From Nemertoderma westbladi (lineage: Eukaryota > Animalia > Xenacoelomorpha): a stretch of 35,329 nt of DNA. The notes beneath the pieces are model-generated. The model saw only the letters and a list, made by a program, of their open reading frames with translations, had not been told where the DNA came from and ran no database searches. A program made the translations under genes and the position numbers. Below are positions 4,391 to 33,644 of this stretch, one piece after another (positions within the stretch are counted from its first letter, which is position 1; each line of letters begins with the position of its first letter). The stretch spans positions 1 through 35,329 of the forward strand of contig JAUCBJ010001473.1 of the NCBI GenBank assembly GCA_032718475.1, in the 5' to 3' direction.

Positions 4391-4514
4391 CGTCCTCGTG
4401 GTTCAACCCTCCCTGCTCTCCTCTATGACCTTTCTTTTTCAGTAAATTACATTATTTACTGATTTTATTTATAATAATTTTTTTAATATATTAATTATCG
4501 CATGTTTCTTCTAG

Positions 4515-5483
4515 ATTTAATGTTAAGTCGCTGATTTCAAAAGTTTGGTATGTGAAGCCCAACCAGGTTCTATGTTCAACACGAAAATGTTATTCAAACG
4601 CGAATACGTCTCACCATTTAGAGATGAGTCAAATTGGTGGTGCCTTGCGTGAAGTTGATCTGAAGAGGTTGAACGATTACCACCAAAAACAACGATCGAA
4701 AAGTGCTGGCTCCGAAGAAGAACAATTAAACCCCAAATTAAAATCAGTTCGTAGACAAGTCCGCAGAGCTCTGGTAACTCGAAACCGCCCACATACAGCA
4801 CATTATTACGGTTATGACGTAAACAGGGAATCTCCATTTTCTAAATCCCACACTACCATTTGTCCTTCGATATTACGGACTAATCCTGAGGATAGTGATT
4901 CATCAGTAAGGATAATGCGACGACCTCAAAGCAACTGCAGTCGCCACAGCAAACTGGAAAGGAGAAACTTAACCTCAGCAAGCCAACTAACCTATGGAGA
5001 ATATAATGCTGCAGACAACGACATGATACCGCCATTAACGCAACGAAGAACATCTAGAATTCATGGTGATCAACCAATCGATAATGCCACTACAAAGATG
5101 AAACCCGAAACACAATCCCGACGATGTGCAATCACTGATAATCAATCGTCTTTACAAGCGATTTTAGAGAAAGAAGAATATCTAAGATTGAAACCATTTA
5201 TTATTAAATACTTTGAAGAGCAGGAGGAGGATAATTACTTAAAACCGGCATATAAAACCAGTAACCATGACTGCAAGAAGAATGCTCTAACCCCAGAACC
5301 CGACGTGAGACCTCTATGGGTACAGAAGATAGTTAAAGAAAATCGTTCGACAAGAAATGAAGCGAATAAGGTGTCTCTGTCGTTGTTGATTGGCAGGAAA
5401 GAGAAGGGACTTAAGGGAGTTGCTCTGTTCCGAAGATACGCCTATGCTATTATATTCCTGAAGGCCATGGGAATCTCATTGGG
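4515..5483 (+). CDS. Putative exon 2 of the uncharacterised host gene (969 nt)
   Basis: Pyrimidine-rich acceptor TTTCTTCTAG|A at 4514/4515. Frame open from 4516 (includes the 311-aa ORF 4552-5487). The ORF's TAA lies inside a consensus donor GG|GTAAGT at 5483/5484. Long ORF in AT-rich DNA. Confidence 0.7.
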
Positions 5484-5620
5484 GTAAGTTTATTCTTATT
5501 TGTTGTGAAAGATCTTGTTTATTTTACAGACTAAATAATACAGAGTAAAATATATAAAATAATAATACCTTAATTAATCCGTGTGGGATTTTACAGTAGC
5601 CGGAATTGAGTATATTTGGA

Positions 5621-6211
5621 AGTCAGGTGAGGACCTTCGAATACGTAAGGGAAAGGCATGGGCAGCCTTGAATAGGCTTTCCAGGATTTGGAAGTCACCT
5701 AGAATTAATCGGAAACTTAATGTCCGATTATTTAGAGCAGCAGTAGTTCCAGTACTCCTCTACGGGAGCCCATGCTGGGCTCTAACTGCTGAGGACACCA
5801 AATCTCTGGATGGCACATTCACAAGAATGTTACGCCGGGTACATTGTGTCAAGTACAATGCACACATCTCCAACCAGACACTATATAACATTGGAGGTGT
5901 CTCATTGGTTCCCCCAAGCTTGACACTAGAACAAAATCGCCTCCGCTTTGCAGGACATTGCTTTCGCCGTGAGGACCAGCCAGTGCATAATCTTGTACTT
6001 TGGCAGCCTCATGGAGTGAATAAGCATGGTGGACAGCCCATGACTTTCTTGAGACGCATCTTAAAGGACACTGGCCTTAAAGATGCGGATGATCTAGCAA
6101 ATGTCATGGGTGATAGGGAGTTGTGGCGGTGCAATTTTGTTGACAAGCCGGCACATTATTCTTAAAAATGCAGCTGCAATGCAGCATGCCGATCCTAGTA
6201 GTAGTAGTAGT
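5621..6211 (+). mobile_element. 5'-truncated RTE-clade LINE with (TAG)n tail and 12-bp TSD
   Basis: Encodes KGKAWAALNRLSRIWKS...VLLYGSPCW...RLRFAGHCFR...LVLWQP (post-RT region typical of RTE LINEs). Ends in TAG repeats. Flanked by AGTATATTTGGA at 5609-5620 and 6212-6223. Confidence 0.92.
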
Positions 6212-11713: not shown

Positions 11714-12916
11714 TTAGAAGTTTATTAACTAATATATTACGAGCGCCCTTGTAATTATGTTACCCCCCTTTCAATATATTTTACCCCCTTTTCAAATATC
11801 TTGCCCCTATTGCAATACCCCCCCCCCCCCCCCCCCCTCCGTCAACCTATTGTATCTATTAACTATATATGATAATTATTGTATCTACCAAATTCTTTGT
11901 TTTTATTTATTTAACGTTTTCGCGAAACCAATGGATTATGCAATGGGCCGGACTCTTCGATATGTGATGGACGGTGGTCTTCACGGTCGAAATTGAATGC
12001 AACGGATTATGTACCATCACGGCTAGTATAAATGATACGTAATATATTTATTATACTACTTCTGGAATTAAACCCACCTATTGTAATATATCAGTATTAT
12101 TCAGGCATACTTTTATTCCACAAAGATATTGATTTCATTTTAATATAAACTATTTCTACTGTGATGCTCTTATTAATACTACAGTAATATAAAATTTAAT
12201 AGTATTATAAATTATTGTTAGTAAAGTAACTTTAACTTTTAGTAAGTTAGTTTGTTTGTTTTTAATCCTTATATCTTAATTTAATACCGACTCACTCACT
12301 ACATTCGTAAGTTCTTTTGCACTGTGACATTCAAGGTATCAGAAAACAACATGGACAGAGACAGCATGTGTCTCCGTGTCTGAATAATACCAACGCGGTC
12401 CCTTCATTGGAGAAATCAAAGTATTTAAAGTATTTACTAAGACCACAGTCACATCGGTGGAAGGGTTAACAGAGGTATGGGGTTTGGATGTCGGTATGCC
12501 TGTTTGATGGAACTGATACACAGACCCGGGGATGGGTAGCCTCGACCTAGAACCTGTCACGTGGAGTAATATCTAACAATGCCGACGGTCTCTACAGTTC
12601 ACATCACTGGGGCTGTTCATTGGCGCGCGGCTAGTTCTGGAGACTTTTGAGCTGTGGGGATCTCCGATTGGCTGCTGGTTTATTTTGTACTTGCCGCTTT
12701 TCTATAGGGTGAACGGCCAGTTCGGAAGACTTGTTTGGCTCTTGAGAGCTGTGGTTGGCTGCGGTTTTACTTTTGATCATGCTGATTTTCTATATATTGG
12801 AGCACTTCAACGAAATATTATTCATTTTCAATCCAGCCAGCAGAGTTTGCTCCCTAAGTTTTTCCTTCAGTTTACATTTGATTTCCTTTTCAGTCTTATT
12901 ACTGTATTATTTTCTG

Positions 12917-13562
12917 TGTAAGCGGATTCAATTCCACTTCATTACCCACCAGAAAATGGGACTAGTGGCATTTTAGCAATATGTTGGGGATACGAGATTA
13001 CCAATATTAATCTCGCCTCATAACCAACATTGGGGGGGGGGGGGGGACACAAGCCCCAAAGCCACAGAGAAAGGTGAGAGGTCAAACCACCTTGGAGGGG
13101 ATACAGCTAGTAGAGGCTAGCAGCGGAGGGGAAACACTCCCAGGGAGTGCGAAAGTGACAAGTAGTATATTAGCCAATAGTGGGGAGGGAAGCACGTGAT
13201 AGGGAACAGGAAAGCATCCATTGGGTAGAAGGCCAAAGGTAGAGTAGGAGGTAAACCAATATTCAATGTATTAATCATATATTATCTTACATTACTGGTT
13301 TACCGGTCAGTTGTGTTATTCAGTTCAGTGAGTGCAGACCGGTCATAGTTAATGACCGCCGCCGCCATACCGGTAACAATTAATCTGTATTCTCTGCTTT
13401 TATCTAACTACGTGCTATTATCGTCCATGTTAATTAATATCGAAAGACAACAGGAACTTTCACTGTTTTCCCGAAAGGCCTCAGCCAAAGCTAGTAGCAC
13501 GATCCCAGCAGAACGGTGACGCGTACATTTCTAACCCGGTCAGGATCTCCGATCCCGTCACA
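12917..13562 (+). repeat. 5' LTR (LTR-A, 646 bp)
   Basis: TGTAAGCGGATTC...GATCCCGTCACA. Matches 26141-26498 joined to 33350-33644, with roughly 15-20 differences counted by eye. Confidence 0.95.
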
Positions 13563-15200
13563 GTCATTAACTCTACCACCTGCCAATAAACTGTGACTGC
13601 AAGAACAAAGAGATCGAGATGAGCGATAGGGAGCCCCGATTATCAGAGGGAGAGAGGACGCCGCCGCGGACCCCGGACGATACCAACCAAACGATCCGCG
13701 AGGCCACGACGAGACGGTATCGGCCGGCCACGCCAGACTCGCCGATGAGAGACGATCCGGCTACCCAAGCGGAGGGTGGCCGTCAACCACGAGGGAGAGA
13801 CGAGTCGGCGGTCGGGGTAACGAAGTCGCCGGCCAGAGCCACAGGCCGAGGGTGACGGACAGCCCACCGGAACGGCGACGGTGGGGCAACCGGTACGACG
13901 CCGGACGAGGAGAGGAGGAGTCCGCGAAGAGGACGTCGGGACGAGTGATCAGCTACGACGGGCCTACAACGCCACCAAGAAACTGCTCAAGGAGGCCAAA
14001 GCAGGGAGATAGGTAGACCAGCCTAAACTGCATCAGGGGCTAGGTGAGTCGAATAAACATTTTCTATATTTAGTCTGTTTTGGACAGGGAGAACTGGCGA
14101 GTGAGAGAGCAAGGGGGGTCGCCATGGAACTGTCTGAATTGTGGCGATCCGGGGTAATGGAGCCTGAGGTAGTGTATGTAGGGCCTTACTTAGTGGATGC
14201 TAGGGGAATTAAGTTAGTGGGTTGGGCGGAACCGCACGATGGCGAACCCAAGGTTAACCCCGAGGATTCGGTGTCATTGGTCAGTGAGAACCCCAGAAAG
14301 CGGGGGAAAGTTAGTAGGACAGAGATGCGACGGGAGTCCGTCGAGACCAATAAGTCCGCTACATCCTCCGCAAAAGCAAGAAGGTGTTAGAGATCGATCT
14401 GGCGTGTCAACTAGACCTTGTGGCGCTGGATCAGCAGGAGTTGGAGAGGCAACTGGAAGAGGGAACCGCGTTATTAGAGAAAGAGAGAGAGTTAGCGAGG
14501 GAATGTAGAGAGAGGGCCAAGAGGGTGGCGGGAAACTGTAGGGAGCGGGAGGTGAGAGAGATAAACGAGCGCGAGGAGCGGGAGGCGAGAATAGAGAAAG
14601 AGCGCAAAGAAGAAGAAGCGGAAGAGGCAGCGAGGATAGGGAGGGAAACGAACAAACGTAAAGAGCGAGAAGTGAGAGAGGTAGTGAGGGCGGAGAGAGA
14701 AACGAACGAGCATAGAGAGCTGGAGGCAAGGGAGGCATAATTAGCGAACCAACATTTGCGAGAGGATAGAGAGAGAGAGAGAGCGGGAAAGCGTATGCAG
14801 GATGATATGCATGCCCGGTTAAGGGGGCTTATGCAATACCAGGCAAAGCAAAAGCGCCGATTAGAACTGGCGCAGTTGGGATTATCTGAGAGTGAGGCCG
14901 GTTCGCCGTAGTTCGGGTAGTATTTATGAGGAGCCCGAAGTAATGGAAACGTTTGTTAATACCCCACTTACAGGCACCGGGCGACAGACCCAGGACTGGT
15001 ATAACCGTACGGACGGGGGGGAGGGGGGTAATAATAATAATACGTTAGAAGGAATTAATATTAATAGAACCATAGTAGACAACCCTAATCACACCTTTGT
15101 TGCAGGAAATAATATTTTACCCGGTAATAATAACTTTGATTCAAATGTGCAAAATAATCCAAATAATAATATTAATTCAAACGTACAAAATAATCCAAAT

Positions 15201-16010
15201 GACTACACTAACACTAACACTAACCGAAGTAGCGCATAACGTCGCGGTCGAACCTCATTTGCAGCCAGTCACCGGTGAGCAGTTCATCCGACATTCCACT
15301 TCAACCGACGACCAAGCCCGCCTCGATGTGTCAGTCTGCGGTTTCTGGGGTTCCAGGTATCAGAAGATATTCCTGGATGTCTCCATCTTCAACCCCGTAG
15401 CCCCCACGAATGCTGCAATGCCTCTCGCCGATGCCCACCTCCATCACGAGGCCTGCAAGCGCAATCTTTATGACGAGCGGATTCGTGAAATTGAGTTGGC
15501 AACATTTACGCCGCTCATATTCTCGGCGTATGGTGGCTTCTCGCCAACCACGTCTCAGTTCGTGAAGCGACTCGGGATATTACTCTCAGAGAAGTGTGAG
15601 GCACCGTACTCCGAGTGTATTCGTTGGATCCGCCGTGAATAGAGTTTCGCACTCCTCCGCGTGGGTTTAATGTGTCTGCGGGGTGCGCGTTCTGCACGGA
15701 ATCGACCGGTACGCTGCGATACTCCGATACAGATGTCCAACTCCGACACCGACAAGTCGCCGTACCCATAGGCAACTAAATATAAAAAAACCTGTCTGCA
15801 TATCCAGGTTTTGAACTGCGCATCACGACTATTAGGCCTAATTTTAGTAATATACTGGTATTTTCTGATTTTTATGTAGGCCTATATTGTTATTGTTTAT
15901 ACTTGTTACCTAGGCTACGTCAGCTGGTGGTGGGACAATGTTTGTTTTTATATATTACATATATTGATATTAAAATGGAAGTTACAAATTAAAAAAAAAA
16001 AAATAATAAT
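15201..16010 (+). mobile_element. 5'-truncated CRE-clade non-LTR retrotransposon (RLE domain, 3' UTR, A/AAT tail)
   Basis: EPHLQPVTGE...ARLDVSVCGFWG...FLDVSIFNP...E..KRNLY..RIREIELATFTPLIFS..GG...CLRGARS. Poly(A) plus (AAT)n tail. AATAATCCAAAT at 15189-15200 and 16011-16022 is the likely TSD. Confidence 0.88.
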
Positions 16011-16243
16011 AATAATCCAAATAATAATATTAATTCAAAAGTACAAAATAATCCAAATAATAATTTTAATTTAAATGTACAAAATAATCCAAATAATCCT
16101 AATTTAAATATACCAAACATTCCAAATAATAGCCCTAACTCTGAGCAAAATAATTTAAGTGGTTTAAATAATTTAGATAACAATATTATTGATAATGGTG
16201 CTATTAATACGAATGTAGGGGACACAGGTGGTCCGGCCAGCGA

Positions 16244-16385
16244 GAGCCTGCAAGGCCACGTAGTTACGCAGGGAGTAGCGGGGGTGAGTCACCCCGACGG
16301 GAGCCTGCAAGGCCACATAGTTAGGCAGGGAGTAGCGGGGGTGAGTCAACCCGACGGGAGCCTGCGAGGCCACGCAGTCGCACAG
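16244..16385 (+). repeat. 57-bp in-frame tandem repeat (~2.5 units)
   Basis: GAGCCTGC at 16244, 16301 and 16358. Unit encodes SLQGHxVxQGVAGVSxPDG. Confidence 0.85.
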
Positions 16386-17629
16386 GGGGGGGGGGGGGGG
16401 AGTAGACCCAGCCGGAGTAGAGACAGTGCGTTGACTAGAGAGGGGCGTAGAAGCGAAGTAGGAGGTAGTGAAGTAAGAATGGAGGGGGGGGGGGGGCTAT
16501 GGGCACCCCACCACGAGAGATTAGTGGCGAGAGGGGGGGGGGCAGGGAATGTCCCACAGGCGTCCGCGGATAATGCGCTGGGCAAGTTAGGTGAACTGTG
16601 GCACCCGACGACGGAGAATAGTAGGGGGATTGCGAGTATCCCCAGGAGTGTCCAACCGGGTAGACAGAGAGGTTGGCGCCTTGAGCGGGCAAGCGAAGAG
16701 ACGTCGAGCCCAGTCGGAAGACAGAAGAAGAACAGTAGAGTTTAACTGGGAGGTCGAAGAGAGATCTCATGAGCGGGAGCGCTACACTGAAGAGAGAAGA
16801 AGTGAAGAGAATAGAAGAAGCGTTGCTACGAGCAACCGGAGAGCAAGGACGGACAGCAAACCGTCGGTAGTAGAGATGGAGTTAGAGAGTCAGTGGGTTC
16901 GAACTCTGGGAGATTGCCGTCGCCCCGGAGAGACGCAGCCTGGTGAGATATACCATGCACCGGGAGAAGGGTACAGGATGTACCAGTACGAGGATGAGGA
17001 CAGAAGAGGGGATCGAAGAGATACTTCCCAACGGGATATAGCTGCCGATCGATTGTACGGTAGTCACAGGGAGGACTTCTTGGAATATTCGAGAAGATTA
17101 AACTTCGGTCCGGAAGGACACAGGCAGACTGCAGGTCATACTGTATGCCTTACTGCACATACTATAGGTCATGCTGGAAGAGATAGTGTAGGCGATAGGG
17201 TAGCGTGAACAATGGGATTAGATACGGAAGTCGCGGCGTACATACCGGTAGGTACGCAAGAAGTGGACGAAACGAAATTTTAATACAATGATCTTTCTTA
17301 TTTTACTATGAAAACTGAGTGGATAGCTTCACAAACCATTTTGTTAGTAAAATATGGCACTTTTTGTGAAGGTCAGTTTTTAAAAAAAAAATTGTATATT
17401 CATCTTCAGGCTTTTTTTTATATATAAAAAAATCTCATGTAGAAGGATCACTAATACTGGGTTGCAGTTCGCGGTACAAGAGTTTGGCACAATGGACCTA
17501 GCTAGATATGTAGGCAATGTTTGAGGGAATTTTCAGCATAAAATTATTGTTTTAAAAAATTATGGGTGCTTTAGTATGTTACTATATTTTAGAGACTAAA
17601 TTTTGAGGTAGACATATACTTTTTTAACA

Positions 17630-17907
17630 TGTAACACCCGATATGGACTGGAGTAATTTTGCCTCCACATTGATGAAGTATAACTTATAACTGACAGGGG
17701 AAGGTTGATTTGCAAAAAAATTATTTAGATATACTTATATAATAATATCTCAGCATAACTATCAGTGAGATTATCAAGTGGAGACTGCCGGTGTGACATT
17801 GGTATTCAAACATTCAATAAGCCAACGTGGTGTTAGATAGAACGTGGTGTGAGGTGTTAATAAGCATAACGAAACAAAACCGGTCGGGATCCACTGATCC
17901 CGTCACA
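17630..17907 (+). repeat. Putative second, different LTR (LTR-B) preceding gag copy B
   Basis: Ends CCGGTCGGGATC..GATCCCGTCACA like LTR-A but is unrelated upstream. Candidate start is TGTAACACCCG at 17630; alternative start TGTGAC at 17792. Confidence 0.55.
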
Positions 17908-17950
17908 GTACGAAATACCCAACTGTAAGCTGTGACTGCAGAAAGCAAAG

Positions 17951-20900
17951 ATGAGCAGCCAGGAGCCCCGAGACTTAGAGGGAGAGAGGACACCGCCGCG
18001 GACCCCGGACGATACCAACAACCTAACGATCCGCGAGGCTGCGACGAGACGGTATCGACCTACGACGCCAGATTCGCCGACGAGAGACGATCCGGCAGTC
18101 CAAGAGGAGGACGGCCGTCTACCACCAGGAGGAAGAGACGAGTCGACGCACGACGGCGGTCGAAGTACCGATGTCGCCGGCCAGCCACAGGCCGAGGGCG
18201 ATGGACGGCCCACTGGAACCGCCACGGTGGGGCCGCCGGTACAACGCCGAACCAGGAGGCGAGGAGGAGAGGTCGGCGACGAGGACGTCGGAACCAGTGA
18301 CCGGCTCCGACGAGCCTACAACGCGACAAAGAATCAGCTTAAGGAGGCCAGAGAAGGAGTAAAGATGACCAAGGGAAGTTGAGTCAGCGACTAGGTGAGT
18401 CGAATAAACATTTTAGATACCTAGTTCGCTTCAGACAGGGAGAACTAGCCAGTGAGAGAGCAAGGGGGGTCGCCACCGGACTATTTGAACTGTGGCGATC
18501 CGGGATTATGGAGCCCCAGATAGTGTACATAGGGCCGTATTTAGGGGTGCTAGGGGAGTTAAGTTAGTGGGTTGGGCAGACCCGCACGAGGGCGAATCCG
18601 AGATTAACCCCAAGGATTCGGTCTCGTCGGTTAGCGAGAACCCCGAAAAGCGGGGGAAAATTAGTAGGACAGAGAGGCGACGGGAGTCCGTCGCGACCGA
18701 TAGTCTGCTACATCCTCCGCAAAAGTAAGAAGGATGTTGGAGATAGATCTGGCGTGTCAGCTAGACATTGCGGCGCTAGACCAAAGAGGGTTAGAGAGAC
18801 AACTGAGCGAGGGAACCGCATTATTAGAAAGAGAGAGAGAGAGTTAGCCAGGGAATGTAGAGAGAGGGCCGAGAGAGTGGCGAGAGACTGTAGGGAGTAC
18901 GAGGAACGGGAGGCAGAAATAGAGAACGAGCGTAAAGAGCGAGAGATGAAAGTAGAGAACAAGCGTAGAGAGCGGGAGACGAGAGAGGCGATGAGAATTG
19001 AGAGGGAAAATAATGAGCGCAAGGAGCGTGAGCTGAGTCGGCTTGAGAGGGTTGCGAGAGAGGCAGAGTTGGCCGAGCAAAGTTTACGAGAGGATAGAGA
19101 AAGAGAGAGAGAGGGAAAGCGTATGCGGGATGATATGCATGCCTGGCTAAGGGGGCTTATGCAATATCAAGCCAAGCAGAAGCACCGACTAGAACTGGCG
19201 CAGTTGGGATTATCAGAGAGTGAGGCTGGCTCGGGTAGTATTTACGAGGAGCCAGAAGTAGTGGAAACGTTTGTTAATATCCCACTTACAGGCGCCGGGC
19301 GACAGAACCAGAACTGGTGTAACCGTACGGGCGGGGGGGGGGGGGGGGTAATAATAATACGTTAGAAGAAATTAATATTAATAGTACCGTAGTAGACAAC
19401 CCTAACCAAACCTTTATTGCAGGAAATATTTTACCCGGTAATTAAAATTTAAATACAAATAATTCAAATACTAATTCCTATTCAAATATTCAAAATAATC
19501 CGAATAATTCTAATTCAAATATTCAAAATAATCCGAATAATTTAAATTCAAATATAGAAAATAATTCGAACAATAATTGAAATTTAGAAAATAATAATAA
19601 TTCTAATTTAAATAATTTAAATAATAATATTGATAACTGGGCTATTAATACTAATATAGGAGACACAGGTGGTCCGGCCAACCGAAGCCTGCAAGGCAAC
19701 GTAGTTAATACGCAGGGATTAGTCGCAGAGTACATACCGGTAGGTAGGCAAGAAGTGGATAGGCCTACATCGGTACCAGCACAGCAGCATGACTATAATA
19801 TGCAGGGACATAACATATATCCAGGGGAGGGGAGAGTTATTGCGGATAGATGTATGGGCCCCAATATATTAACATCAACCCCAGTACCAAACATAATGCC
19901 GGTGGGGGGGGGGGGGGGGGCAGGGTAACATTCCCCCATTACAATATCAACTCAAACAGGAATAAGAACATCGAACCCCCTGGACGAGAACAGGTCATGC
20001 GATACGGAAATATGGAGGGGGCCATTACCGCCAATTATATATCCGACACAAGTTAAGTCAACAGGCCCGACGGGCGGACCGCACCCAACAGGAGAATCTG
20101 TACAGCATCCTTCGAACCCATTGGAGCACAGGCAATGGGAATGGCTACACTAATCGATGCACTGAAGACCAGGATCGAGTTACCACCAGTCGAGCCATTT
20201 AAATTCGACGGAAGTAGGCTGGAAGAATACCTGCAATTTCGGCGCATGTACAGCAACGAGATATTAAGTAAGAACCTGACGCAGGCGGAGTGCCTAAAAT
20301 ATCTACAGGTATATACAGGAGGCCCAGCGTACGACATCGTGAGGCAGTATCAGGGCATCGGGGGCGGCTTCACGACTGCATGGCGGGCCCTAGACAGGGA
20401 ATACGGATACCCAGCCAAGATCATCTGGCAAACCCTGAGGGGTATAACATCGGATGGCCTACAGGATAACCCCGTCAGCATAAAGACGTTTGCGAACAAA
20501 GTCAAGAAGGCGTTAATCATGCTGAAGACGCTAGACGCGCCATACGAACTCAACGCATCTAATAACATCACCACAATAGCGCAGGCACTGCCGATCTGGC
20601 TACGGAGCAAGTGGAGGAAGATCGCCTTCTCCACTCAGGAGAAGAAAGGTGCGGCGCCAGGGCTAGAGGAAATGTCAAACTTCCTCAACTATGAAGCAGA
20701 GTTGATTACAGACCCAGTCTATAGTGAGGATAGTTTGGGGAAGGCGCCAAAGACCGAATACAACAGGCCTAAACCCGAACACAATCCTGCAGATCCATTC
20801 ACGAGAGTAAGACAGTTGCTACCACACGCAGCCACACAGGGGGCTACAAGCCCACAGTTAGCTGGGAGTAGGGCCACACCGTGGTAGGGACAGAAAGAAA

Positions 20901-21190
20901 ATAACAACACAAATAAACATAATCCCAACATAACCAGTAGGCCGAGTCCAGATAACCAAAACACTAAATCGGTAGACATAAACCTACGCGCGATACGTGA
21001 AGGACTATGCAGGGAATGCTATAATCCAGGATTCGAATGTCAATTACATCGGGACGGAACCCATAAGACCATGAGTTGTAAGCACTGGCAAGTGTTGCCT
21101 AACAAGATCGTATAGCCTACACAGACGCAAACGGACTATGTCATCGTTGTGTGGTAGAAGGACACAGATCCGGAGAGTGTGGAGAAACAG
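17951..21190 (+). pseudogene. gag: BEL/Pao gag, copy B: leader, coiled coil, Asn-rich segment, capsid (DUF1759-like) and CCHC knuckle
   Basis: ELPPVEPFKFDG...EYLQF...CLKYL..YT.GPA...AW.AL.REYG...LPIWLRSKW (20135-20887) is a typical BEL Gag capsid. GLCHRCVVEGHRSGEC lies at ~21134-21180. Several frameshifts and stops. Confidence 0.9.
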
Positions 21191-21239
21191 CAGTAGGAGA
21201 CAACGAGACTGGAGGCCAAACAATGGCTACAAGCACGAC

Positions 21240-21770
21240 AGGAGTAAGAAGAAAGAGGAAAGTACTACTCGGAGTAGTACCAGTGAAGATATCAAGAAAG
21301 GGCGGTCGATCAGTTACAACATTAATGCTGGTCGACAGCGGAGCAGCCTTCACGCTGGTGGAGAATTGGGTGGCCGAGGAGATAGGGTTACAGACGAGGC
21401 CGAGTAGGTTGGCGGTAACTACTGTCTCAAGTAAAGACGAAGTCCTGGAGATGAGGATGGGACGGTGCAAGATATCAGCGATCGCACCGTGATGTGACTA
21501 TGGGGCCACCATCGACCCCATCCAGGCGATAGAATCGATAAATATCAACGCCAGGCGACCAACCAACATTGAGGTCGAACAATATAGATTCCTGGACAGT
21601 ATCGATTTCACAATGCCAGAGGTGGACGTTAGGAAGGTATCCATTATAGTAGGAATGGACTGCCCGATGGCCCACAAGAGAATGCAGACTGTCTTCGGCG
21701 AAGACAGACAGTGGGATCCGACGGCGATCCTCACGCCGTTCGGATGGACGCTTAGCGGCCCAGTTAAAAC
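21240..21770 (+). pseudogene. BEL/Pao aspartic protease region
   Basis: VLLGVVPVKI...MLVDSGAAFTLV (catalytic DSG), then SIIVGMD and PTAILTPFGWTLSGP, the BEL-specific post-protease motif. One in-frame TGA at 21490-21492. Confidence 0.9.
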
Positions 21771-21996
21771 CAAGATTCCATCCAGGGTGACGGAGACATC
21801 AGGGTGCATGTTACCAGGCACCGTAGACGCAGAAGACAAAGAGAAGAAACCGGAGATGGTAGATGAGCCAGATGGGGAAGTAACAGTAGGAGAGTGGGCG
21901 GAGGAGAATGGATTTGACACGGAAGACTTAGAGGCAATGGGATGGAACAAGGGTCCCAGCAAGTATCGGTATGGGGATGGAGAGGAGCGGACGGCG

Positions 21997-22121
21997 AGAT
22001 GTCCAGAGGACAACCCGGAGGAGTGGACGGTGAGATGTCCGGAGGACATCAGTCCGGAGGAGTGTCCGGAGGAGTGTCGGAAGGAGTGTCCGGAGGAGTG
22101 TCCAGAGGAGTGTCCGGAAGA
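21997..22121 (+). repeat. 12-bp repeat encoding (CPEE)n
   Basis: GAGTGTCCGGAG units; the protein reads SPEECPEECRKECPEECPEECPEE. Confidence 0.9.
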
Positions 22122-22269
22122 GACGCCGGTCTGGTTGAGAGGCATACCGACAAAGGGGAGGTCGAGTAAGAAGACATGGTGGAAAGAGAGAGGATGTGGG
22201 AAGATTAAACCAGGGACAGAGAAGCCCATGATGAAACGTGACAAAGTGGGAAAGTGGGAGAGGGCGTGT

Positions 22270-22811
22270 TGTACACGCATAAGGAGGTGGCAGAGTGCGA
22301 AAGGGCATTAAATGGTAAGCCATTACGTGTACCAAAGGATGACTGGGAATCATCGAGGGCTTTAATGCCGGCGCACATATTAAGGGGGAGGCCAGCGGAG
22401 GTGGCATGTACCAGTAAGAATGACATGAGGGGCGGCATTCTACCGCCAAACGATGACAAGATGAAGGGTGGCACTTTGCCACCAGGGGACGACCACGACG
22501 AGATCAGTAACATGACAGAAATACCCGATTTAAGGATGGAAGAGAAGGGAAGGTCAGTTCCAAGAGAGTTGGAATTGACAAGGAGAGTGGGGTGACGAAT
22601 TAGAGGACCTACAGGGGGGCAGTGGGAGGGTTGCCTGCTGGAAGAATCACCCATAGGTTGTCCAATAAGTTGGACTGAAGGGGGGGGGGGGGGCGAAGAT
22701 GGAAGAGTCAGATCCGTAGGAGTGAGAATAGGGGGCAAAATAGGAGCAAAAGATAGGAAGACCTACAGGAGGGCTGTAGGAAAGTGCTGCCTATTAGAAG
22801 GGGCACCGTAG
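22270..22811 (+). pseudogene. Remnant of BEL integrase C-terminus and DUF5641-like tail
   Basis: AECERALNGKPL...LMPAHILRG matches 'E.E..LNSRPL...LTP.HFL.G'. GEDGRVRSVGVR...YRRAVGKCCLLE matches the terminal 'G.DG.VR.V...Y.RP..KL' motif. Confidence 0.8.
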
Positions 22812-22975
22812 AGTTTAGTCGTCCAAATGTTGGACTGAGGGGGGTGGAAATGAGGGTGAGACGCCCTTCCCACACATAATATAAAAAAAAATAAATTTAA
22901 TTAAAATTAAGAAGTGAGATAGTAGAAAGTTAGAAAGTAATAGTAGTAGATAGTACGTAGCACTAAGTAAGTAGT

Positions 22976-23603
22976 CAGAAGTTAGGGAGTGTGGTACATT
23001 GACATACCACGAGAGTAGTAGGGTACATAGTACCATAGGCAGAAGTTAGGGAGTGTGGTACATTGACGTACCACGAGAGTAGTAGGGTACATAGTACCGT
23101 AGGCAGAAGTTAGGGAGTGTGGTACATTGACATACCACGAGAGTAGTAGGGTACATAGTACCATAGGCAGAAGTTAGGGAGTGTGGTACATTGACGTATC
23201 ACGAGAGTAGTAGGTTACATAGTACCGTAGGCAGAAGTATAGGGAGTGTGGTATATTGACATATCACGAGAGTAGTGGCAGGGTACATAGTACCGCTGGT
23301 AGAAATTAGAAGTATAGGGAGTGTGGTATATAAACATACCTCGAGAGTAGTGGCAGGGTATATAGTACCGCTGGTAGAAGTTAGAAGTATAGGGAGTGTG
23401 GTATATAAACATACCACGAGAGTAGTGGCAGGGTATATAGTACCGCTGGTAGAAGTTAGAAGTATAGGGAGTGTGGTACATAAACATACCACGAGAGTAG
23501 TGGCAGGGTATATAGTACCGCTGGTAGAAGTTAGAAGTATAGGGTATAGGGAGTGTGGTATATAAACATACCACGAGAGTAGTGGCAGGGTACGTAGTAC
23601 CGT
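22976..23603 (+). repeat. Tandem array: four 64-bp units followed by about five 75-bp units
   Basis: CAGAAG at 22976, 23040, 23104, 23168 and 23232. AGAAGTATAGGG at 23233, 23308, 23383, 23458 and 23533. Confidence 0.95.
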
Positions 23604-23994
23604 TAGAGTTAGAAGTTAGAGTTAGTAAGAGTTAGTAGTAAGAGAGTAGAGAATACAGTATATAAATATTCCATAAGAGTAATAGTAGGGTACATAGTAC
23701 CGTAGAGGTTGTGGGCACAGAGAGCGCCACGAAAAGAGAGGGGGGCACGTGGGTACAGCAGGATAGACCGTGTAGGCCGCACGAGACAGACTACTGTACT
23801 GCAAGGCCCATAGAGTAAGTTAGGATGTTTGATACAGGGCCAGGAGGCCACCTGGTACAGACTAGCACAGTAGAGAATAGCTAGTCTACCCTGTATACAA
23901 ACTATAGGGGTTATCTAAGTAAAAATAACCCACATAAGCGATAATAGCATACCAATAAAAATTAAAGTAGTATTAGAAGTAAATCCGACAAATT

Positions 23995-25415
23995 ATGGCA
24001 ACAGTAAGTAAAAGATTTTAGAACATAATAAAAGTAACTGACAGACGTACCGAAGTATCCGAGAGAACCACCGAGAAAGGACTGAATGAGGTTCATAGAG
24101 TCTGTAAACAGGGGAGGATACATGGTCCTAGACGACGAGGGGACTGTGGAGGACAAAGAGGGTTCGAGAAGAGGGTCGGTGGGATCGGCTAGAACCATAC
24201 CACTACTGCATTTGGCTGCGCCAAATGGAGACATATTCCTATTCGATATAGGAACGTACGGCAAGAAGAGCGGGCCGAAGTTAAACAGGTTGCCAAGGGC
24301 GGTGCAAGACCTAGTAAGGAAGAAGACAACGGTGAAAGTGGGATCGGCGATCCGCGACGATGCGGAGAGGATCGTCGGACCGGAGACCCCCAACCTCCTG
24401 GACATGCAAGCAGTCTATATGGCCATGACAGGGCCAGACGGGTTGCGATTGGTAGAGAAGACAGGACATTGAGGAGCAGTGGCGATGGGCCAGCTCATGG
24501 GGCTCGTCTGCCACAAGCCGATGGACTGGGGTAAGTTCCGGGAGGAGTACGGAGCGGAGCTGGCGAACTCGCTGAAGTGGGGAGCGAGGCCAGGGAAACA
24601 GGAGGTGTATCAGTTCCGGAGAGGAGCGATAAAGATATATATCAGAAGAGATATATCCTACAGGAGGATTGGATAATGATAGGTTTACTAAACCTATTCA
24701 TGGCTGTGGTTATCGGAAGAGAGCCGACGGCGTTTCTTCTATCAGGATCACCCCTGAACTACAGAAGGGGACGAGTTGCCTCTACTGCCGCGAGTCGAGC
24801 CATAGGATGGGAGCATGTCCGAGGCTGCACAACTGCTGTTCTAAGTGTAACTTCCGAGGGCACTATGGGCGCCAGTGCGACTGGATGGACAACGAGGAGA
24901 AGTTTAAGATCTTCGAGGAGTGGGCCGACGTCAGTGTTATGACGCGACAGAGGATGAAGGCCCAGGAGTTCCGGTGGGGTTTCTTCAACATCAATCAGGA
25001 AGCCCATCTGGAGATTATCAAGAGGAGACTGCCAATCACATACCAGGAGGTAGCGACAGCGGCGTCGCATGGAGGAGTCATCAACACGCAGAGGTATTTG
25101 GATAGATGGACGCCAGAAAACAGAGGAGAGTTTAGGGATTTTCTGGTGGAACACGTGCCGCAAACCATGAAAATGATCTTGTGGGAAGCTACCAGGGGGA
25201 AGCAGGAGGGGCATTTGGAAAGGCCACCTGGAAAGCGTTACCGGGAGTTAATAACACCAGCACCCAAAGAATCGACCACGGGAATTAGCAAGGCAGTAAC
25301 GGCGAGAATGAGGAGTCTCAGAGAGGACAAACCAGAGGGAAGGAAGCGGCCCAGACAGGACGATGATAGAGGGAATGAACTAAGATGGTTCCCGAAGATG
25401 GGAGGAGCGAACTAG
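23995..25415 (+). pseudogene. Extra ORF: DEDDy-type (WRN/RNase D-like) 3'-5' exonuclease plus two CCHC zinc knuckles; disrupted
   Basis: MVLDDEG (ExoI-like DxE), LLHLAAPNGDIFLFDI, LPRAVQDLVRKKTTVKVGSAIRDDAERI (ExoII-like KVG..I..D), LLDMQ, W..RP. Then CLYCRESSHRMGAC and CSKCNFRGHYGRQC. Split across ORFs 24086-24472, 24479-24676 and 24669-25415. Confidence 0.75.
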
Positions 25416-26102
25416 GACTCGGTGAGGGAGATGTGCGCGTGCCTGGAAGGCACCACATGTGAAATAATACGAACTCCTAAGTGCAAAATAATTAAGTGCA
25501 ATTAGTATGTACGTATGTAATAATCAATATAATTAGAATATAACTAAAATGAATATAATCAAAGTAAGTACTATAGTCATAAATAACCTTTTTCCAACTA
25601 GCTAGTGGGACTGGGGACCAAATGACTATGACAGGAGGACGGGACAATAGATGAATCACACTTCTTGAGTGCGACGGCACAAAAAGGGGGGGGTGGGGCG
25701 AGGCTCGTCAGGGGTGAGTGGAGTGAAACAAGCATGGGTTGAGTATAGGAATATGAGAGAAGTATGGAGAGGAAGTGTTGTGAGAGGAGTGCAATTCAAG
25801 TGTGGGGAGCGAGCAGTAAGAGAGCGAGTAAGGGACAACAGGGTCCGTGAGAGAAAGAGTAGAGTGAGATTAGAGTGAATTCAGAGCGAAGTCATATAAA
25901 ATTGTGTGGAAAGAGAGTCCACAATTGTCTCGAACAGAGATGTCAGATATCTTGGTGCAACATAGCTCGCGATTGCACCAAGGAGGAGTAGCAATAACAT
26001 ACCCAGGGGGGGCGGCCTGGAAAGCCAACCCCGAGAAAAGAACCCCACCCTACACCCGATAGTAGATTGGGTTCCAGCGGAATTGAAGCGCACTTGAGGT
26101 TG

Positions 26103-26140
26103 ATGCTATCTTCTCACCGGGAAGATAGCATGGGAGGGAG
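26103..26140 (+). promoter_or_regulatory. 11-bp hairpin followed by the polypurine tract
   Basis: ATGCTATCTTC-TCACCGG-GAAGATAGCAT, then GGGAGGGAG directly abutting the TG of the 3' LTR at 26141. Confidence 0.9.
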
Positions 26141-26498
26141 TGTAAGCGGATTCAATTCCACTTCATTACCCACCAGAAAATGGGACTAGTGGCATTTTAG
26201 CAATATGTTGGGGATACGAGATTACCAATATTAATCTCGCCTCATAACCAGCATTGGGGGGGGGGGGGGGCGACACAAGCCCCAAAGCCACAGAGAAAGG
26301 TGAGAGGTCAAACCACCTCAGAGGGGATACAGCTAGTAGAGGCTAGCAGCGGAGGGGAAACACTCCCAGGGAGTGCCAAAGTGACAAGTAGTATATTAGC
26401 CAATAGTGGGGAGGGATGCACGTGATAGGGAACAGGAAAGCATCCATTGGGTAGAGGGCCAAAGGTAGATTAGGAGGTAAACCAATATTCAATGTATT
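26141..26498 (+). repeat. 3' LTR, left part
   Basis: Matches 12917-13272 and stops at the CRE insertion. Confidence 0.95.
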
Positions 26499-26722
26499 GA
26501 TAAAGTATTGATTGGTGGGTTTTTTGACCATGAAAATGGGGTACGTTACGTACTGTACATCAGTATACCACAGTACAGCACAGCAGTACAGTCTTTGATA
26601 CTGCCGACAGCCAGACTGCTTGGCGCCAAACAAACGAGGCAAACATAACGGCGTTTTGATATTGCCGACAACATTTAACCTTCGAGGATTGCGGACATTG
26701 CTAGTTACCAACCAGCACAGGG

Positions 26723-29700
26723 ATGCCCTTTTGTTGCGGATGTGGTATAAACGGAACTTGCAAACGCGGTGCGTGGTGCGCCTGCGTGAGGGCAAGCCGA
26801 GAATGTTGGGACTGCGTTCCCGGCAAGCGAAGACGGTGCATGAACGGCGGAGTCGGTTCGCCGACTACCCAGTCTCAACCCAACCCGATTAGTGATGGAC
26901 AACGAAACCTGCCGGCGCCAGCGATCACGGCCTTCTCCCAGCCGTCTCCATCCGAGTTGGAGAGGGGTGACGATTCCCTCGACGATACGTTGTTGGACAT
27001 GTCTGACAGCGATTGCTCTTTTCACTCGCTGAGCGACACGTTGGTGCCTCGATGTTCCCCTTACCGGGACAGTAAGTCGGCCACATCGAGCCCTGAAGGC
27101 AGAGGGTTGAGTCCGGTTGTCGGTTTGTCCGTCCACATCCACGCGGGTCCGCCTGTCGGTTTGTCTGTCACCACGAGCACGTCTGTCGGTTTGTCTGTCC
27201 CCACGGTTGGGCCGTGCAAGGGTCCCCCAGACCAGATGGGTCCCCCAATTCACAAGGGTCCCCCTGACCAGTTGGGTCCCCCTGACCAGTTGGGGCCCCC
27301 AGACCATTTGGCCCCCCCAGACCAGTGGAGTCCCCCCGTTCACAAGGGTCCCCCCGTTCATAAGGGTCCCCCAGACCAGTTGGGTCCCCAAGACCAGTTG
27401 GGCCCCACAGATCAGCTGGGCCCCCCCGTTAATAAGGGTTCCCCAGACCAGTTGGGTCCCCCCGTTCATAAGGGTGCCCCAGATCAGTTGGGTCCCCCCG
27501 TTCATAAGGGTCCCCCAGACCAGTTGGGTCACCCCGTTCATAAGGGTCCCCAGCCCCCCGTTCATAAAGGTCTCCCAGACCAGTTGGGTCCCCCCGTTCA
27601 TAAGGGCCCCCCTGTTAATACGGGCCCCCCTGTTCAGTTGGGTCCCCCAGACCAGTTGGGTCCCCCCGTTCACAAGGGTCCCCCCGTTCAGTTGGGCCCC
27701 CCAGACCAGTTGGGTCCCCCTGACCAGTTGTGTCCCCCAGACCAGTTGGGTCCCCCAGACCAGTTGGGCCCCCCCGTTCATACGGGTCCCACCGTTCATA
27801 ACGGTCCCCCAGATCAGTTGGGTCCCCCCGTTCATAAGGGTCCCCCAGACCAGTTGGGTCCCCCCTTTCATAAGGGTCCCCCAGACCAGTTGGGTCCCCC
27901 CGTTCATAAGGGTCCCCCCGTTCACAAGGGTCCCCCATTTCCCTTGGGTACCCCAGACCAGTTGGGTCCCCCCGTTCACAATGGTCCCCCATTTCAGTTG
28001 GGTCCCCCAGACCAGATGGGTCCCCCTGTTTACAAAGGTGCCCCCGTTCAGTTGGGCCCCCCAGACCAGTTGGGTCCCTCAGACCAGTTGGGTCCCCCCA
28101 TTCAAAAAGGACCCCCCGTTCACAAGAGTCCCCCCGTTCAGTTGGGTCCCCCAGACCAGTTGGGTCCTCCCGTTCACAAGGGACCTCCCGTTCAAATGTG
28201 TCCCCCAGACCAGTTGGGCCCCCCCCCGACCAGTTGGGCCCCTCCGACCAGTTGGGTCCCCCCATTCATAAGGGTCCCCCAGACCAGTTGGGTCCCCCCG
28301 TTCATAAGGGTCCCCCAGACCAGTTGGGTCCCCCTATACAGCTGGGACCCTCAGACCAAATAGGTCCCCCTGTTCAGTTGGGTCCCCCCATTCATAAGTG
28401 TCCCCCCGCTAAGGTGGGTCCCCCTGACCAGTTGGGTCCCCAAGACCAGTTGGGCCCCCCACATCAGTTGGGTCCCCCAGACCATTTGGGTCCCCCACAC
28501 CAGATGGGTCCCCCCGTTTATAAGGGTCCCCCCGTTCAGTTGGGTCCCTCAGATCAGTTGGGTCCCCCAGACCAGTTGGGTCCCCCCCTTCATATGGGTC
28601 CCCCTGTTCAAAGGGGTTCCAGTACCTTTGACGACACATCGCCCTTCGGCTCACACTGGACTCCCGAAGCACCCCGCAACTCGGACCCCCAAGACCTGAT
28701 GATGAGGGCGTTTGGGGCCCCCTTGGTGGGTAAAGGTGCTCCGCCAGATGGATTGCTCCACCAGTGGAGGAGGGCCACTCAATTACGCGGCTCCAAGTAT
28801 AGACAGCCTGGGGGGGCCGTGGGTCGTGATATGGTTGAGCTGTTGACGTCGGAAGCCACAGCTTTTGTGGCGGGTTTGAGACATAACGTTGCGAACGCGC
28901 GTTCCGAACGGATCCTCCTCGCAGACTCGCTGCTCCTTCACCGGGACCCTAGGGTCATCAAAGCCGCAGATATCCGACGCCTCCTCATCCGCCGACTTGA
29001 AATGTGGAGGTCAGGGCGGCTTGAGGCGCTGCTTCAGGAGGCGGAGCGCTGCTCCAGTAAAGTTGGATCTGGAAGGCAGACCAAAGCCAAGACCCCGGAT
29101 GAGGACAAAGACCACACAGTTCGAGTTTTTACTCGCCTGATGTTGGAGGGCAAAGTGAGGAGCGCGGTTCGGTGGGTCACAAATCGTGAGGGTGGGGGGG
29201 TGTTAGACCCTGATGATGACGCCATCGATGCTGAGGGAAGAAAGGTTAAGGTCATCGACCTTCTTCGTGCCAAGCATCCCCCTGCCTCCCCACCTCCACC
29301 TGAGGCCCTTATCCAACTCGATGAGGACCTCCCTGTCTGGGTCGACGTCGACGTTACTGCCTCCCACATAGAGTCCTCCGCGCGTCGACTCCATGGAGGC
29401 GCTGGACCTGCCGGCTCCGATTCAACCCGCTGGGGCGATTACCTCCTTCGTTACGGCGCCCACAGCGAACGCCTCCGGGACGCGGTTGCTGAGATAGCAC
29501 GTTCCCTTTCCAACGCTGTCGTACCCTGGGAGTCGGTGCGCGCCCTGATGTCCTGTCGTCTGATCGCCCTGGATAAGTGCCCGGGGGTCCGCCCAATCGG
29601 CATCGGGGAGTGTTTACGGCGGATTCTCGGCAGATCCCTGGCCGAAGCAACGGGGGATGACGTCACCGCGACCTGTGGCGCCGAGCAGCTCTCCGCCGGC

Positions 29701-31545
29701 ACGTCAGCCGGCGTCGAGGCCGCCGTCCACACGATGGCGGAGTTGTTTGAGGACCACAAGGAGGACGGCTGGGGAGTTCTCCTCGTCGACGCGTCCAACG
29801 CGTTCAATTCGATGAACCGAACGGCCGCGTTGTGGAACGCTCGTCAGCTGTGGCCCAGGTGCTCACTGTTTTTGTTTAACTGCTACAGGGGGCACAGTAT
29901 GTTAATTATTAGAGGGACCAATGTGGTTCTATTTAGCGAGGAGGGAACCACCCAGGGCGATCCCCTTGCGATGCTGGAGTACTCGACCGGTATACTCCCC
30001 CTCATCCACCACCTGAGAAAGCCCCCCCTCATTCAGAACTGGTTTGCCGATGACTCAGCGGCAGCTGGCAGACTCTTCCTGATCCTGGAATGGTTCAGGG
30101 AACTGAAACGTCACGGCCCCACCCTCGGCTACTATCCGGAACCCACCAAGAGTTACCTCGTCGTAGCTCCACAGTACGAGGAGGAGGCCCGTAGAGTTTT
30201 CGCTGGCCAGGAGATAAATATAGTAACGGGACACCGTTTCCTGGGCGGGTATCTTGGTGGGACTGCAGAGCGATTGGGTTACGTTCAGGCCAAAGTTGCT
30301 GCGTGGGTCGCATCGGTTGATCGTCTCTCAGAGATGGCCGAGACCCAACCCCAAGCCGCGTTCGCTGCCATGGCCGGCTCCCTCCAACGGGAGTGGGCTT
30401 ACCTCCAGCGCGTAACCCCAGACTGTGTCGATGAGTACCAGGTGCTGGAGGACGCGCTGACTGAGCGTTTCCTTCCCGCAGTGTTTGGCGGACCGATCTC
30501 CCCAAACGAGCGTTGTCTGTTCGGCCTCTCACCTCGCACTGCAGGTCTCGGACTGCGGAATCCGGTGTCCGAGGCGGCCCACTCGTTCGATATATCGCGA
30601 GCTGGAACCCGGACCATCGCGCAGTCGTTATTGGGAGATCGGCAGTTCTCGCTCACGGACCACCGTAATTGTTTACAGCGAGTGCGGAAAGAAGGACGGG
30701 ACCAACAGCTCGGAAGGGAGAGGGCTAGTCTGGAGGCCGTGCTGGACGAGTTCCCACAGGGCCGCCGTCGGACGGTCGAGCGCGCCGCCAACTTCCGCTC
30801 CAGTGGGTGGATTTCCTCCCTCCCAATAGCCGAACACCAACTTGATCTCTCCCCCATGGAGTTCCGGGATGCGCTGGCGATCCGGTACGGCCGCCCCCTG
30901 GCGGCGGTGCCGAGTCGGTGCGATGGGTGCGGGGCCGCCTTCGATTTAAACCACGGTTTAAATTGTAAAAAAGGCGGCCTCGTAATCCAAAGACACAACG
31001 AGCTCCGGGATGTGGTCGGTGATCTCGCGGCGCGCGCGTTCGGGCCCCGGAACGTCACCCTCGAGCCGGTGGTCCGCGAACAGCAGGGAGTAGACGGAGC
31101 AGCAGGTCTCCGTTGTGATGTGGGGATTCGGGGTGCGCTAAACCCGCAGACCCAGGCGTTGATCGATATTCGGGTTGTAAACCTTGACGCCGGGTCATAT
31201 GCGGGTCGCACCCCAATGTCTGTCCTGGAGTCGGCCGAGGACCAGAAGAAGAGGCTGTACGCGGACGCAGTGACGGCCCGACGGGGCGACTTCTCGCCGT
31301 TCGTCGCCTCATGCGACGGAGTTCTCGCGCCGCAAGCGAACCATCTTCTCCGTGTGGTGGCAGACCGGCTGCACCGATCGTGGGGGCGGCCCTATAGCGT
31401 CACAATGGGCTGGATCCGTACGCGGGTTCAGTTGGCCATTATTAGAGGGGCCACCCACTGTCTGCGGGGCTCCCGCACCAAGTGGAGAAGCGCTCGGGGG
31501 CCGGATGATGGCGCAGGGCTGCCAGAAAGCTGGCAACCGGTGTAG
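26723..31545 (+). CDS. CRE polyprotein (~1600 aa if one frameshift in a C-run at ~28219-28227 is corrected): Cys-rich N-terminus, GPP repeats, RT, CCHC finger, restriction-like endonuclease
   Basis: MPFCCGCGINGTCKRGAWCACVRASRECWDC; RLIALDKCPGVRPIGIGE; LLVDASNAFN; GTTQGDPLAM; WFADD; CDGCG...HGLNC...RHNELRD; RCDV...DIRV...E..KKRLY...FSPFV. ORFs 26723-28363 and 28198-31545 carry the same repeat frame on either side of the C-run. Confidence 0.92.
27217..28612 (+). repeat. 18-bp coding minisatellite (~75-80 units; PDQLGP / PVHKGP / PVQLGP)
   Basis: Units CCAGACCAGTTGGGTCCC and CCCGTTCATAAGGGTCCC are interspersed throughout. Confidence 0.97.
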
Positions 31546-31738
31546 TACTGTGGTACAATGTAGGTGTATAATAATATATAAACATAAAAACAATCAATTC
31601 AATTTATATTTACTGTGTTTGGTGGTGGTGCAGTTTTAACTGTTTGTTGTTTAAGTTTTTAAATTTCCCGCGATTATTTAGTAGTAATTACACTGTGTTC
31701 TAGATCAATAAAATGGGACACTATATTCAATGTATTAA

Positions 31739-33349: not shown

Positions 33350-33644
33350 TTAATCATATATTATCTTACATTACTGGTTTACCGGTCAGTTGTGTTATTC
33401 AGTTCAGTGAGTGCAGACCGGTCATAGTTAATGACCGCCACCGCCATACCGGTAACAATTAATCTGTATTTCTGCTTTTATCTAACTACGTGCTATTATC
33501 GTCCTATATTAACTAATATCGAAAGACCAACAGGAACTCGTTCACTGTTTTCCCGAACGGCCTCGGCCAAAGCTAGTAGCACGATCCCAGCAGAACGGTG
33601 ACGCATACATTTCTAACCCGGTCGGGATCTCCGATCCCGTCACA
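33350..33644 (+). repeat. 3' LTR, right part
   Basis: Matches 13271-13562, ends GATCCCGTCACA and is followed by the TSD TTCTG. Confidence 0.95.

Follow-up and report, generated by a model that had tools for sequence, protein, structure and literature searches.

How does an LTR retrotransposon start minus-strand DNA synthesis when no tRNA-binding site follows its 5' LTR? This question is raised by a nested element of 20.7 kb in a contig of Nemertoderma westbladi, which lies within the 35,329 nucleotides of DNA analysed here (hereafter the window); the end of its 5' LTR, LTR-A, is the site under study. An earlier sequence-only reading of the window had suggested non-canonical, possibly self-, priming, had pointed to two stem-loops at the LTR end and had speculated that an exonuclease encoded by the same element matures the primer.

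The element is a non-autonomous BEL/Pao derivative

LTR-A spans 646 nt from TG to CA (12917-13562, + strand). Its end, which had been placed at 13562, was confirmed by the second LTR copy, by the target-site duplication TTCTG (left copy 12912-12916, unstranded; right copy 33645-33649) and by the polypurine tract (26132-26140, +) that directly precedes the 3' LTR at 26141. The 3' LTR (26141-33644, +) is present in two pieces, 26141-26498 and 33351-33644, with later insertions between them. Both LTRs open with TGTAAG and close with GTCACA, the second copy ending at 33644. In the alignment of LTR-A with the interrupted 3' LTR, 631 of 653 columns are identical, and only 14 positions differ between the two. 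The TG…CA LTRs, the short target-site duplication and the purine tract are structural hallmarks of BEL/Pao elements.

The coding regions are those of an old, broken copy. A gag-like region of a subfamily that we call A, broken and truncated, occupies 13619-17268 (+), with a retroelement fragment inserted near 15200-16000. It is followed by the BEL/Pao gag domain DUF1759 (20057-20887, +; E 2e-9) and by a zinc knuckle plus aspartyl protease with one in-frame stop (21103-21800, +), which is 27-30% identical to Pao-type polyproteins. The protease matches P0001 with an E value of 1e-16 and is 30% identical to the A17-bearing ORF of the related locus L003. Searches with stops read as X, in three forward frames over 13600-21400 and in six frames over 21400-26141, yielded no Pfam match to RT, RNase H or integrase. 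Since no pol domains were found, the element is classed as a non-autonomous BEL/Pao derivative with gag and protease, not as a full member of the Belpaoviridae. The known host range of this group points to an animal host (PMC8742986).

Several other repeats lie in the window. The two pieces of the 3' LTR are separated (26499-33350) by a non-LTR-like element and an element of ~1.6 kb that is flanked by TTAA and whose inverted ends are rich in G/C. The non-LTR-like element contains a 1211-aa ORF (27910-31545) with no Pfam match, an 18-bp tandem array at ~27200-28600 and a ~14-bp target duplication; the C-terminus of its ORF is, we presume, reminiscent of CRE-clade elements. The fragment at 15200-16000 in the gag region of copy A is a 5'-truncated piece of a similar non-LTR element. 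Related tandem repeat arrays of 64 bp and 75 bp occupy 22907-23702, between the protease region and an extra ORF, and 12-bp repeats coding CPEE lie at ~21990-22135. Long inverted repeats at 205-1411 and 5618-6205, up to 94% identical over 267 nt, are accompanied by ORFs at 4495-5487 and 5578-6165 (weak DUF6451) and probably belong to another mobile element.

The sequence after LTR-A is complementary to the LTR itself

The family profile of the Belpaoviridae describes tRNA-primed replication from an 18-nt site for tRNA-Arg or tRNA-Gly, and calls BEL/Pao replication poorly understood (PMC8742986). Such a tRNA-Arg/tRNA-Gly site is absent here: the earlier observation that TGG follows neither the end of LTR-A (13562) nor a second LTR end at 17907 held, with no TGG within 12 nt downstream of either. 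The predicted primer-binding position, GTCATTAACT (13563-13572, +), adjoins the CA of the LTR and is the exact reverse complement, 10/10 at offset 0, of the predicted self-primer AGTTAATGAC (13347-13356, +), a match that the sequence-only reading had overlooked. The sole other occurrence of AGTTAATGAC in the window is its copy in the 3' LTR (33426-33435). A 10/10 complement at offset 0 was matched in 11 of 3000 LTR shuffles and in 0.19% of 20,000 dinucleotide LTR shuffles. Among the duplex sites that the LTR offers to the primer-site 10-mer, the segment at 13347-13356 also ranks first (-11.6 versus -7.5 kcal/mol for the next), and 13340-13358 is able to form a 7-bp hairpin that covers the self-primer.

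Transcription is predicted to start at 13345 (+), in an initiator-like word (BBCABW) whose A lies at -2 from the pairing segment; 13322, 13327 and 13336 are alternatives. An initiator-like A stands 2 nt before the pairing segment in LTR-A and in the related loci L003 and L007, from which a primer of ~12 nt is predicted, close to the 11 nt of Tf1 (PMC7175516), with the proviso that LTR-A holds 14 initiator-like words and that the -2 pattern was spotted post hoc. Rfam gave 0 matches at E <=1 on 12900-18100, and ARAGORN found no tRNA over the window.

Predicted stems around the primer-binding position

The outer stem described earlier, GTCACAG/CTGTGAC with loops of 27 nt in A and 21 nt in copy B, was confirmed in its coordinates and loop lengths. 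It grows to 8 bp, with 8/8 Watson-Crick pairs in A and seven plus one G-U pair in B; in A this helix, P3 (13557-13564 with 13590-13597, +), encloses the primer-binding loop. Of the 624 ACA sites in the window, A and B among them, 1.9% have a comparable 8-bp stem. The inner stem CGGGATC/GATCCCG, here the U5 hairpin P2 (13542-13556, +), pairs at 7/7 positions in B and in the 3' LTR as had been claimed, but only at 6/7 in the 5' LTR-A, which has one mismatch; most public contigs carry the paired form.

A further helix, P1, was predicted between TGCAGACCGG (13333-13342, +), which is present in the window solely in the two LTRs, and the words CCGGTC (13536-13541) and TGCA (13598-13601), with pair probabilities of 0.62-1.0. 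These partner words are kept in B. According to the folding prediction, P1, P2 and P3 can make a perfect four-way junction with zero unpaired bases; we regard such a junction in the family of the window as plausible, although somewhat doubtful. The primer pairing is a pseudoknot and competes with the last two P3 pairs; its probability is 0 in nested folding, where P3 claims the first two bases of the primer site. The fold z-score is -2.4 for A and -0.5 for B. A check for covariation in the stems was negative: A and B differ by no compensatory change, the arms of P1 and P2 are invariant, and P3 changed on one side. Two relatives described below, family 1 and L022, have P3-like stems of 6 bp, which do not exceed chance expectation: 8.7% of ACA sites show such a stem, and a 3' LTR control reached 7 bp. 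L017 and L020 have no P3-like stem.

A second subfamily with a different loop

The feature previously called LTR-B does end at 17907, but it is not a whole LTR: only its last ~31 nt are present. Similarity to LTR-A begins at 17877, and the window holds no second copy of it. The preceding stretch (17274-17876, unstranded) is no LTR and consists of small interspersed repeat pieces (17274-17560) followed by low-depth sequence. Contig depth at 17576-17863 is the lowest and flat (0-44 in X1, 6-79 in X2), versus 24,000 (X1) and 12,000 (X2) at 17888-17911, where summed contig depth is not to be read as copy number. Copy B (17877-17941, +) retains the LTR end, the kept P1 partners, P2, P3 and a distinct primer-binding loop opening with GT. 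Copy B represents a second subfamily, 78% identical to A, of which it has the U5 end, the leader and gag; it may have come to lie inside A by nesting and then deletion, or by template switching. We also asked whether 17631-17907 could be the LTR that belongs to B, the pairing partner having decayed near 17790-17810; this was rejected in view of the depth and of the weak duplex. No upstream pairing of the B loop is better than -6.4 kcal/mol. The LTR partner of B is missing.

Public contigs across the junction came from four coded runs in three studies, with 1496, 889 and 869 junction contigs in three runs and 22 in the fourth. Their depth is high at 13326-13367 and at the LTR end, drops ~25-fold in the loop (from about 15,000 to about 600) and recovers at the start of gag. 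The joints at which contigs depart from the window lie at 13564, at 13566 and, in 2 X1 contigs, at 13572, exactly where the 10-mer ends; six X1 contigs part from B at 17919, 12 nt past its LTR end. The LTR end and the first GT are thus common to the subfamilies while the loop is variable, which argues against one shared tRNA; the contig tables are unable to tie a loop to its own LTR. The exact 24-base LTR-end pattern had 0 matches in metagenome contigs. Separately, the summed contig depth at the gag start (13641-13724) exceeds that at the LTR end, a hint of a strongly conserved signal in the DNA or RNA, for example a packaging element.

Related families with contiguous or split LTR complements

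The protease, used as a query against metagenomes, led to 17 loci, and an RT alignment, used against genomes, to 5 more, the latter presumably host DNA inside bacterial records; queries for self-pairing relatives were built from the window and family 1. Protein scans of viral contigs and a gag search at near length found no relatives. When CA sites are scanned blindly, with no LTR boundaries to guide the search, chance complements of 8-10 nt turn up, and only sites at LTR ends were therefore counted. Loci with no usable 5' LTR end or partner region were left out, namely 11 of the 17 from the protease scan (L001, L005, L006, L008-L015) and 2 of the 5 from the RT scan (L018, L021); L016 is a duplicate of L017 and was represented by it.

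Family 1, which is autonomous and only distantly related, comprises L002, L003 and L004 together with L007 (81% DNA identity) and has an intact Pao ORF of 2073 aa; the relatives carry Peptidase_A17 and an integrase. In family 1 the LTR is followed by GTTACTTCGA, which has its exact complement inside the LTR (10/10; 0-4 of 3000 shuffles). Its 10-mer differs from that of A at 6 of 10 positions, in a positional comparison that is not a proven alignment. The protease of the window is nearest to that of L003 (105 bits versus <=44 outside family 1), and the protease tree gives the window no supported place.

Four other relatives, L017, L019, L020 and L022, also have no TGG, and their primer-site positions pair with two pieces of the LTR (13/14, 11/11, 10/11 and 11/11, respectively). 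These pieces flank a predicted, canonical-looking GTRAGT…YAG intron (L017:536-635, L019:60-458, L020:4856-5017, L022:1661-1736), and its removal would yield a primer-site partner of 11-14 nt. The pairings in L017 and L020 contain one mismatch each, and the 5' LTR end of L019 was assigned from a single LTR. The split match of L017, the one among the four for which shuffling was done, was reached in 0 of 400 shuffles.

In an RT/RNase H tree of 16 rows, L003, L019, L020 and L022 belong to an eight-row clade (99/99), and all 6 rows labelled tRNA-type lie outside it; the remaining four rows of the clade carry no priming-type label. The tree was built without L007 and L017, whose matches are short, and without the window, which has no RT; L017 was put in the self-pairing clade by DNA similarity only. 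A family search that was not guided by the self-priming idea found BELs with TGG sites, 5 of its 12 loci (L050, L055, L056, L058, L059) being left out on the same grounds as above. The TGG-type controls with LTR pairs (L049, L053, L054, L060) have LTR complements of <=5 nt at offsets 0-2. The TGG site of L057 was placed without an LTR pair, and in L051 and L052 the pair ends 5-17 nt short of TGG.

Some features of these loci were observed in passing. L051-L054 are tRNA-type BELs of ~13 kb; in L051, L052 and L054 pol is followed by an additional long ORF that is possibly env-like, and L053 has tandem LTR copies. Three bacterial genome records (G001-G003) gave 2, 13 and 6 Pao-peptidase matches, which are likely host contamination; G002 also holds tRNA arrays of apparent animal origin.

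An extra ORF upstream of the 3' LTR

The window element has an extra ORF with one in-frame stop (24086-24670, +), which by its motifs is a candidate DEDD 3'-5' exonuclease. Pfam, NCBIfam and PHROGs did not recognize it, a PDB sequence search returned nothing significant, and its pairwise alignment with one PF01612 exonuclease was weak (E=0.63). Its single-sequence fold was unusable (pLDDT 32). Five phmmer matches were considered as homologues and rejected as TPR-repeat artefacts. The ORF has no tblastn match in loci L001-L022, and in L003, L020 and L022 less than 170 nt separate the last long ORF from the 3' LTR, leaving no room for an exonuclease ORF there. The earlier suggestion that an element-encoded exonuclease matures the primer was thus left unsupported, the ORF being unrecognized by the libraries and absent from the self-pairing relatives. 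The self-pairing signature therefore does not need the exonuclease. Overlapping the end of the exonuclease-like ORF in another frame is an ORF of 260 aa (24633-25415) with two CCHC-like zinc-knuckle motifs and no library match.

A model for self-priming and its alternatives

We propose that the element probably starts minus-strand synthesis from a short fragment of the 5' end of its own RNA, in a Tf1-like manner and with the RT of a helper element, and that no tRNA is used. The self-priming that the sequence-only reading considered possible is supported in this form, by the 10-nt LTR pairing and by the relatives, but not by the stem-loops themselves. We infer the start site, the pairing and the cleavage from sequence, as follows. 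Transcription would start at ~13345, and the transcript would pair back with its leading ~12 nt onto the P3 loop. RNase H of the helper's RT would then cut after 13356, as in Tf1, the copy itself encoding no RT. Extension of the freed 3' end (…AC) would begin at 13562 and produce the correct TG…CA end with no spacer; a primer that ends at 13356 and is extended from 13562 has the position required to regenerate the LTR end. The stems noticed in the sequence-only reading likely present the site in an open loop, much as the duplexes around the Tf1 site do. With a start at 13345, the LTR strand of P1 would lie in U3, and P1 would join the 3' end of the RNA to its 5' end; with a start at 13322-13331, P1 would anchor a longer primer of 26-35 nt. 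The model makes an exact prediction: DNA that begins at the LTR end should be attached to an RNA of ~12 nt whose last base is 13356. As for the relatives, it is likely that a whole BEL/Pao clade dropped tRNA priming and takes its primer from its own LTR RNA, contiguous or spliced depending on the family. A fuller version, in which clade-wide self-priming is combined with a junction-tethered primer and with trimming by the element's 3'-5' exonuclease and not by RNase H alone, appears improbable.

Alternatively, the primer could be a host RNA (a half-tRNA, another tRNA fragment or another small RNA) and the LTR match incidental. Half-molecule tRNA primers exist in Copia lineages, according to the accessible text of one source (PMC6317226), and GT opens most of the primer-binding sites found here; however, each tested family has its own distinct site that matches its own LTR. 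The best matches among 89 distinct proxy tRNAs, a weak and mostly bacterial set in which the presumed host contigs supply 10 anticodon types, reach 7/10 for A and 8/10 for both B and family 1, and we consider a host primer quite unlikely. Equally unlikely is that the pairings form a regulatory, packaging or dimerisation structure or are partly due to chance, the true primer site lying elsewhere or having decayed. The old, broken state of the copy, the low fold z-scores and the lack of double-sided stem changes would fit this explanation. Against it, the pairing begins at the exact base after the LTR CA, where the 3' end of a primer must sit, in A and, with a shift of one base in L017, in five related families, and it is absent in the TGG-type controls; moreover, with just 14 differences between the LTRs, a decayed tRNA site would still be recognizable.

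Two other alternatives keep the primer within the element. It could come from the 3' region of the RNA, that is, from the 10-mer in the 3' LTR, or from a short LTR transcript, trimmed as far as the duplex by the putative 3'-5' exonuclease. Both the 10-mer and the P1 strand are indeed present in the 3' LTR, where P1 could tether the 3' end by the primer-binding loop, and the extra ORF is a candidate DEDD exonuclease by its motifs. A role in 3'-end processing has been suggested, not shown, for the DEDDy ORFs of rotifer LTR elements, in the part of the source available (PMC5408684). However, in A, L003 and L007 the hexamers that resemble poly(A) signals follow the 10-mer and do not precede it, the 7-bp hairpin can hide the 10-mer in the 3' copy, and no such ORF precedes the 3' LTR in the self-pairing relatives, its identity in the window being putative; this origin is thus rated as improbable. 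Least probable, in our view, is that a splicing event within the LTR, with the AG at 13347-13348 as acceptor, completes the primer of A and gives a longer duplex. The primer site can be matched in two parts, of 8+4 nt, by use of a GT at 13081, and spliced primers are predicted in L017, L019, L020 and L022, but GTCAAA is a poor donor context, and the acceptor, unlike those of the four relatives, has no pyrimidine tract. The 8-nt part already belongs to the contiguous match, so that the figure of 1/400 shuffles is not independent, and the nearest family is contiguous.

Comparison with known self-priming elements

Priming from the front of the element's own RNA, which we favor, has its closest parallel in Tf1, which is self-primed by ~11 nt of its own RNA (details as given in reviews, PMC7175516). 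In the portions of the sources available, self-priming is described as shown for Tf1 and as predicted for Tf1/sushi elements (PMC4600332, PMC10085805) and for Tcn1 and TAR Copia elements (PMC6317226). As described there, the Tf1/sushi chromoviruses, including Tf1 and Tf2 of S. pombe, Tj1 and Tosmo, likewise have no tRNA site, and the site after the CA of the 5' LTR pairs with the element's own LTR (over ~11 nt). Duplexes that flank the primer site may be a further likeness, as far as these accounts extend (PMC7175516, PMC4600332, PMC10085805); helices P2 and P3 are their predicted counterparts here, with a geometry unlike the 'pretzel' and without covariation. In contrast to the three-duplex 'pretzel' of Tf1, as it is described in the text available, the site here would lie in the loop of a stem between the U5 end and the leader, possibly in a four-way junction. 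The sister families of the window element are also predicted to build their primer by splicing, unlike Tf1, and the cleavage proven for Tf1 is predicted here. The proteins differ as well: the element is non-autonomous and has BEL/Pao gag and protease in place of a chromodomain-bearing pol. The element would work like Tf1 but, with its BEL/Pao-type proteins and no pol, is no member of Tf1/sushi, a group of Ty3/gypsy chromoviruses.

With the Belpaoviridae the element shares the LTRs, the purine tract, the DUF1759 gag and the Pao-type protease; it differs in having no TGG site, RT, RNase H or integrase, and in its extra ORF. Self-priming has been predicted from complementarity between primer site and LTR for the Tcn1 chromoviruses and for plant TAR (Houba/Osr-1) Copia elements as well, so that the trait, in predictions only and as far as the accessible text goes, is not limited to Tf1/sushi and extends to other superfamilies and hosts (PMC6317226). 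An extra downstream exonuclease-like ORF (DEDDy ORF3) is found in the Juno and Vesta LTR elements of bdelloid rotifers; those ORFs were identified by profile search and are not linked to priming in the part of the source available, whereas the identity of the ORF here is putative (PMC5408684). No paper on self-priming in BEL/Pao came up in full-text searches, although subscription papers, Repbase or supplements may mention it, and the main texts of the Sinbad paper (PMC554778) and of a BEL/Pao survey (PMC3118150) do not mention primer sites. Self-priming would explain why annotation based on primer-binding sites misses such elements.

If the model is true, a self-priming BEL/Pao clade would represent a further independent origin, or a retention, of the Tf1 trick in a third superfamily. 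This bears on whether hairpin or self-priming came before tRNA priming, a question discussed in the accessible text of PMC3601003. Such elements would also be immune to silencing by tRNA fragments directed at the primer site, as that mechanism is described in the text available (PMC7472051).
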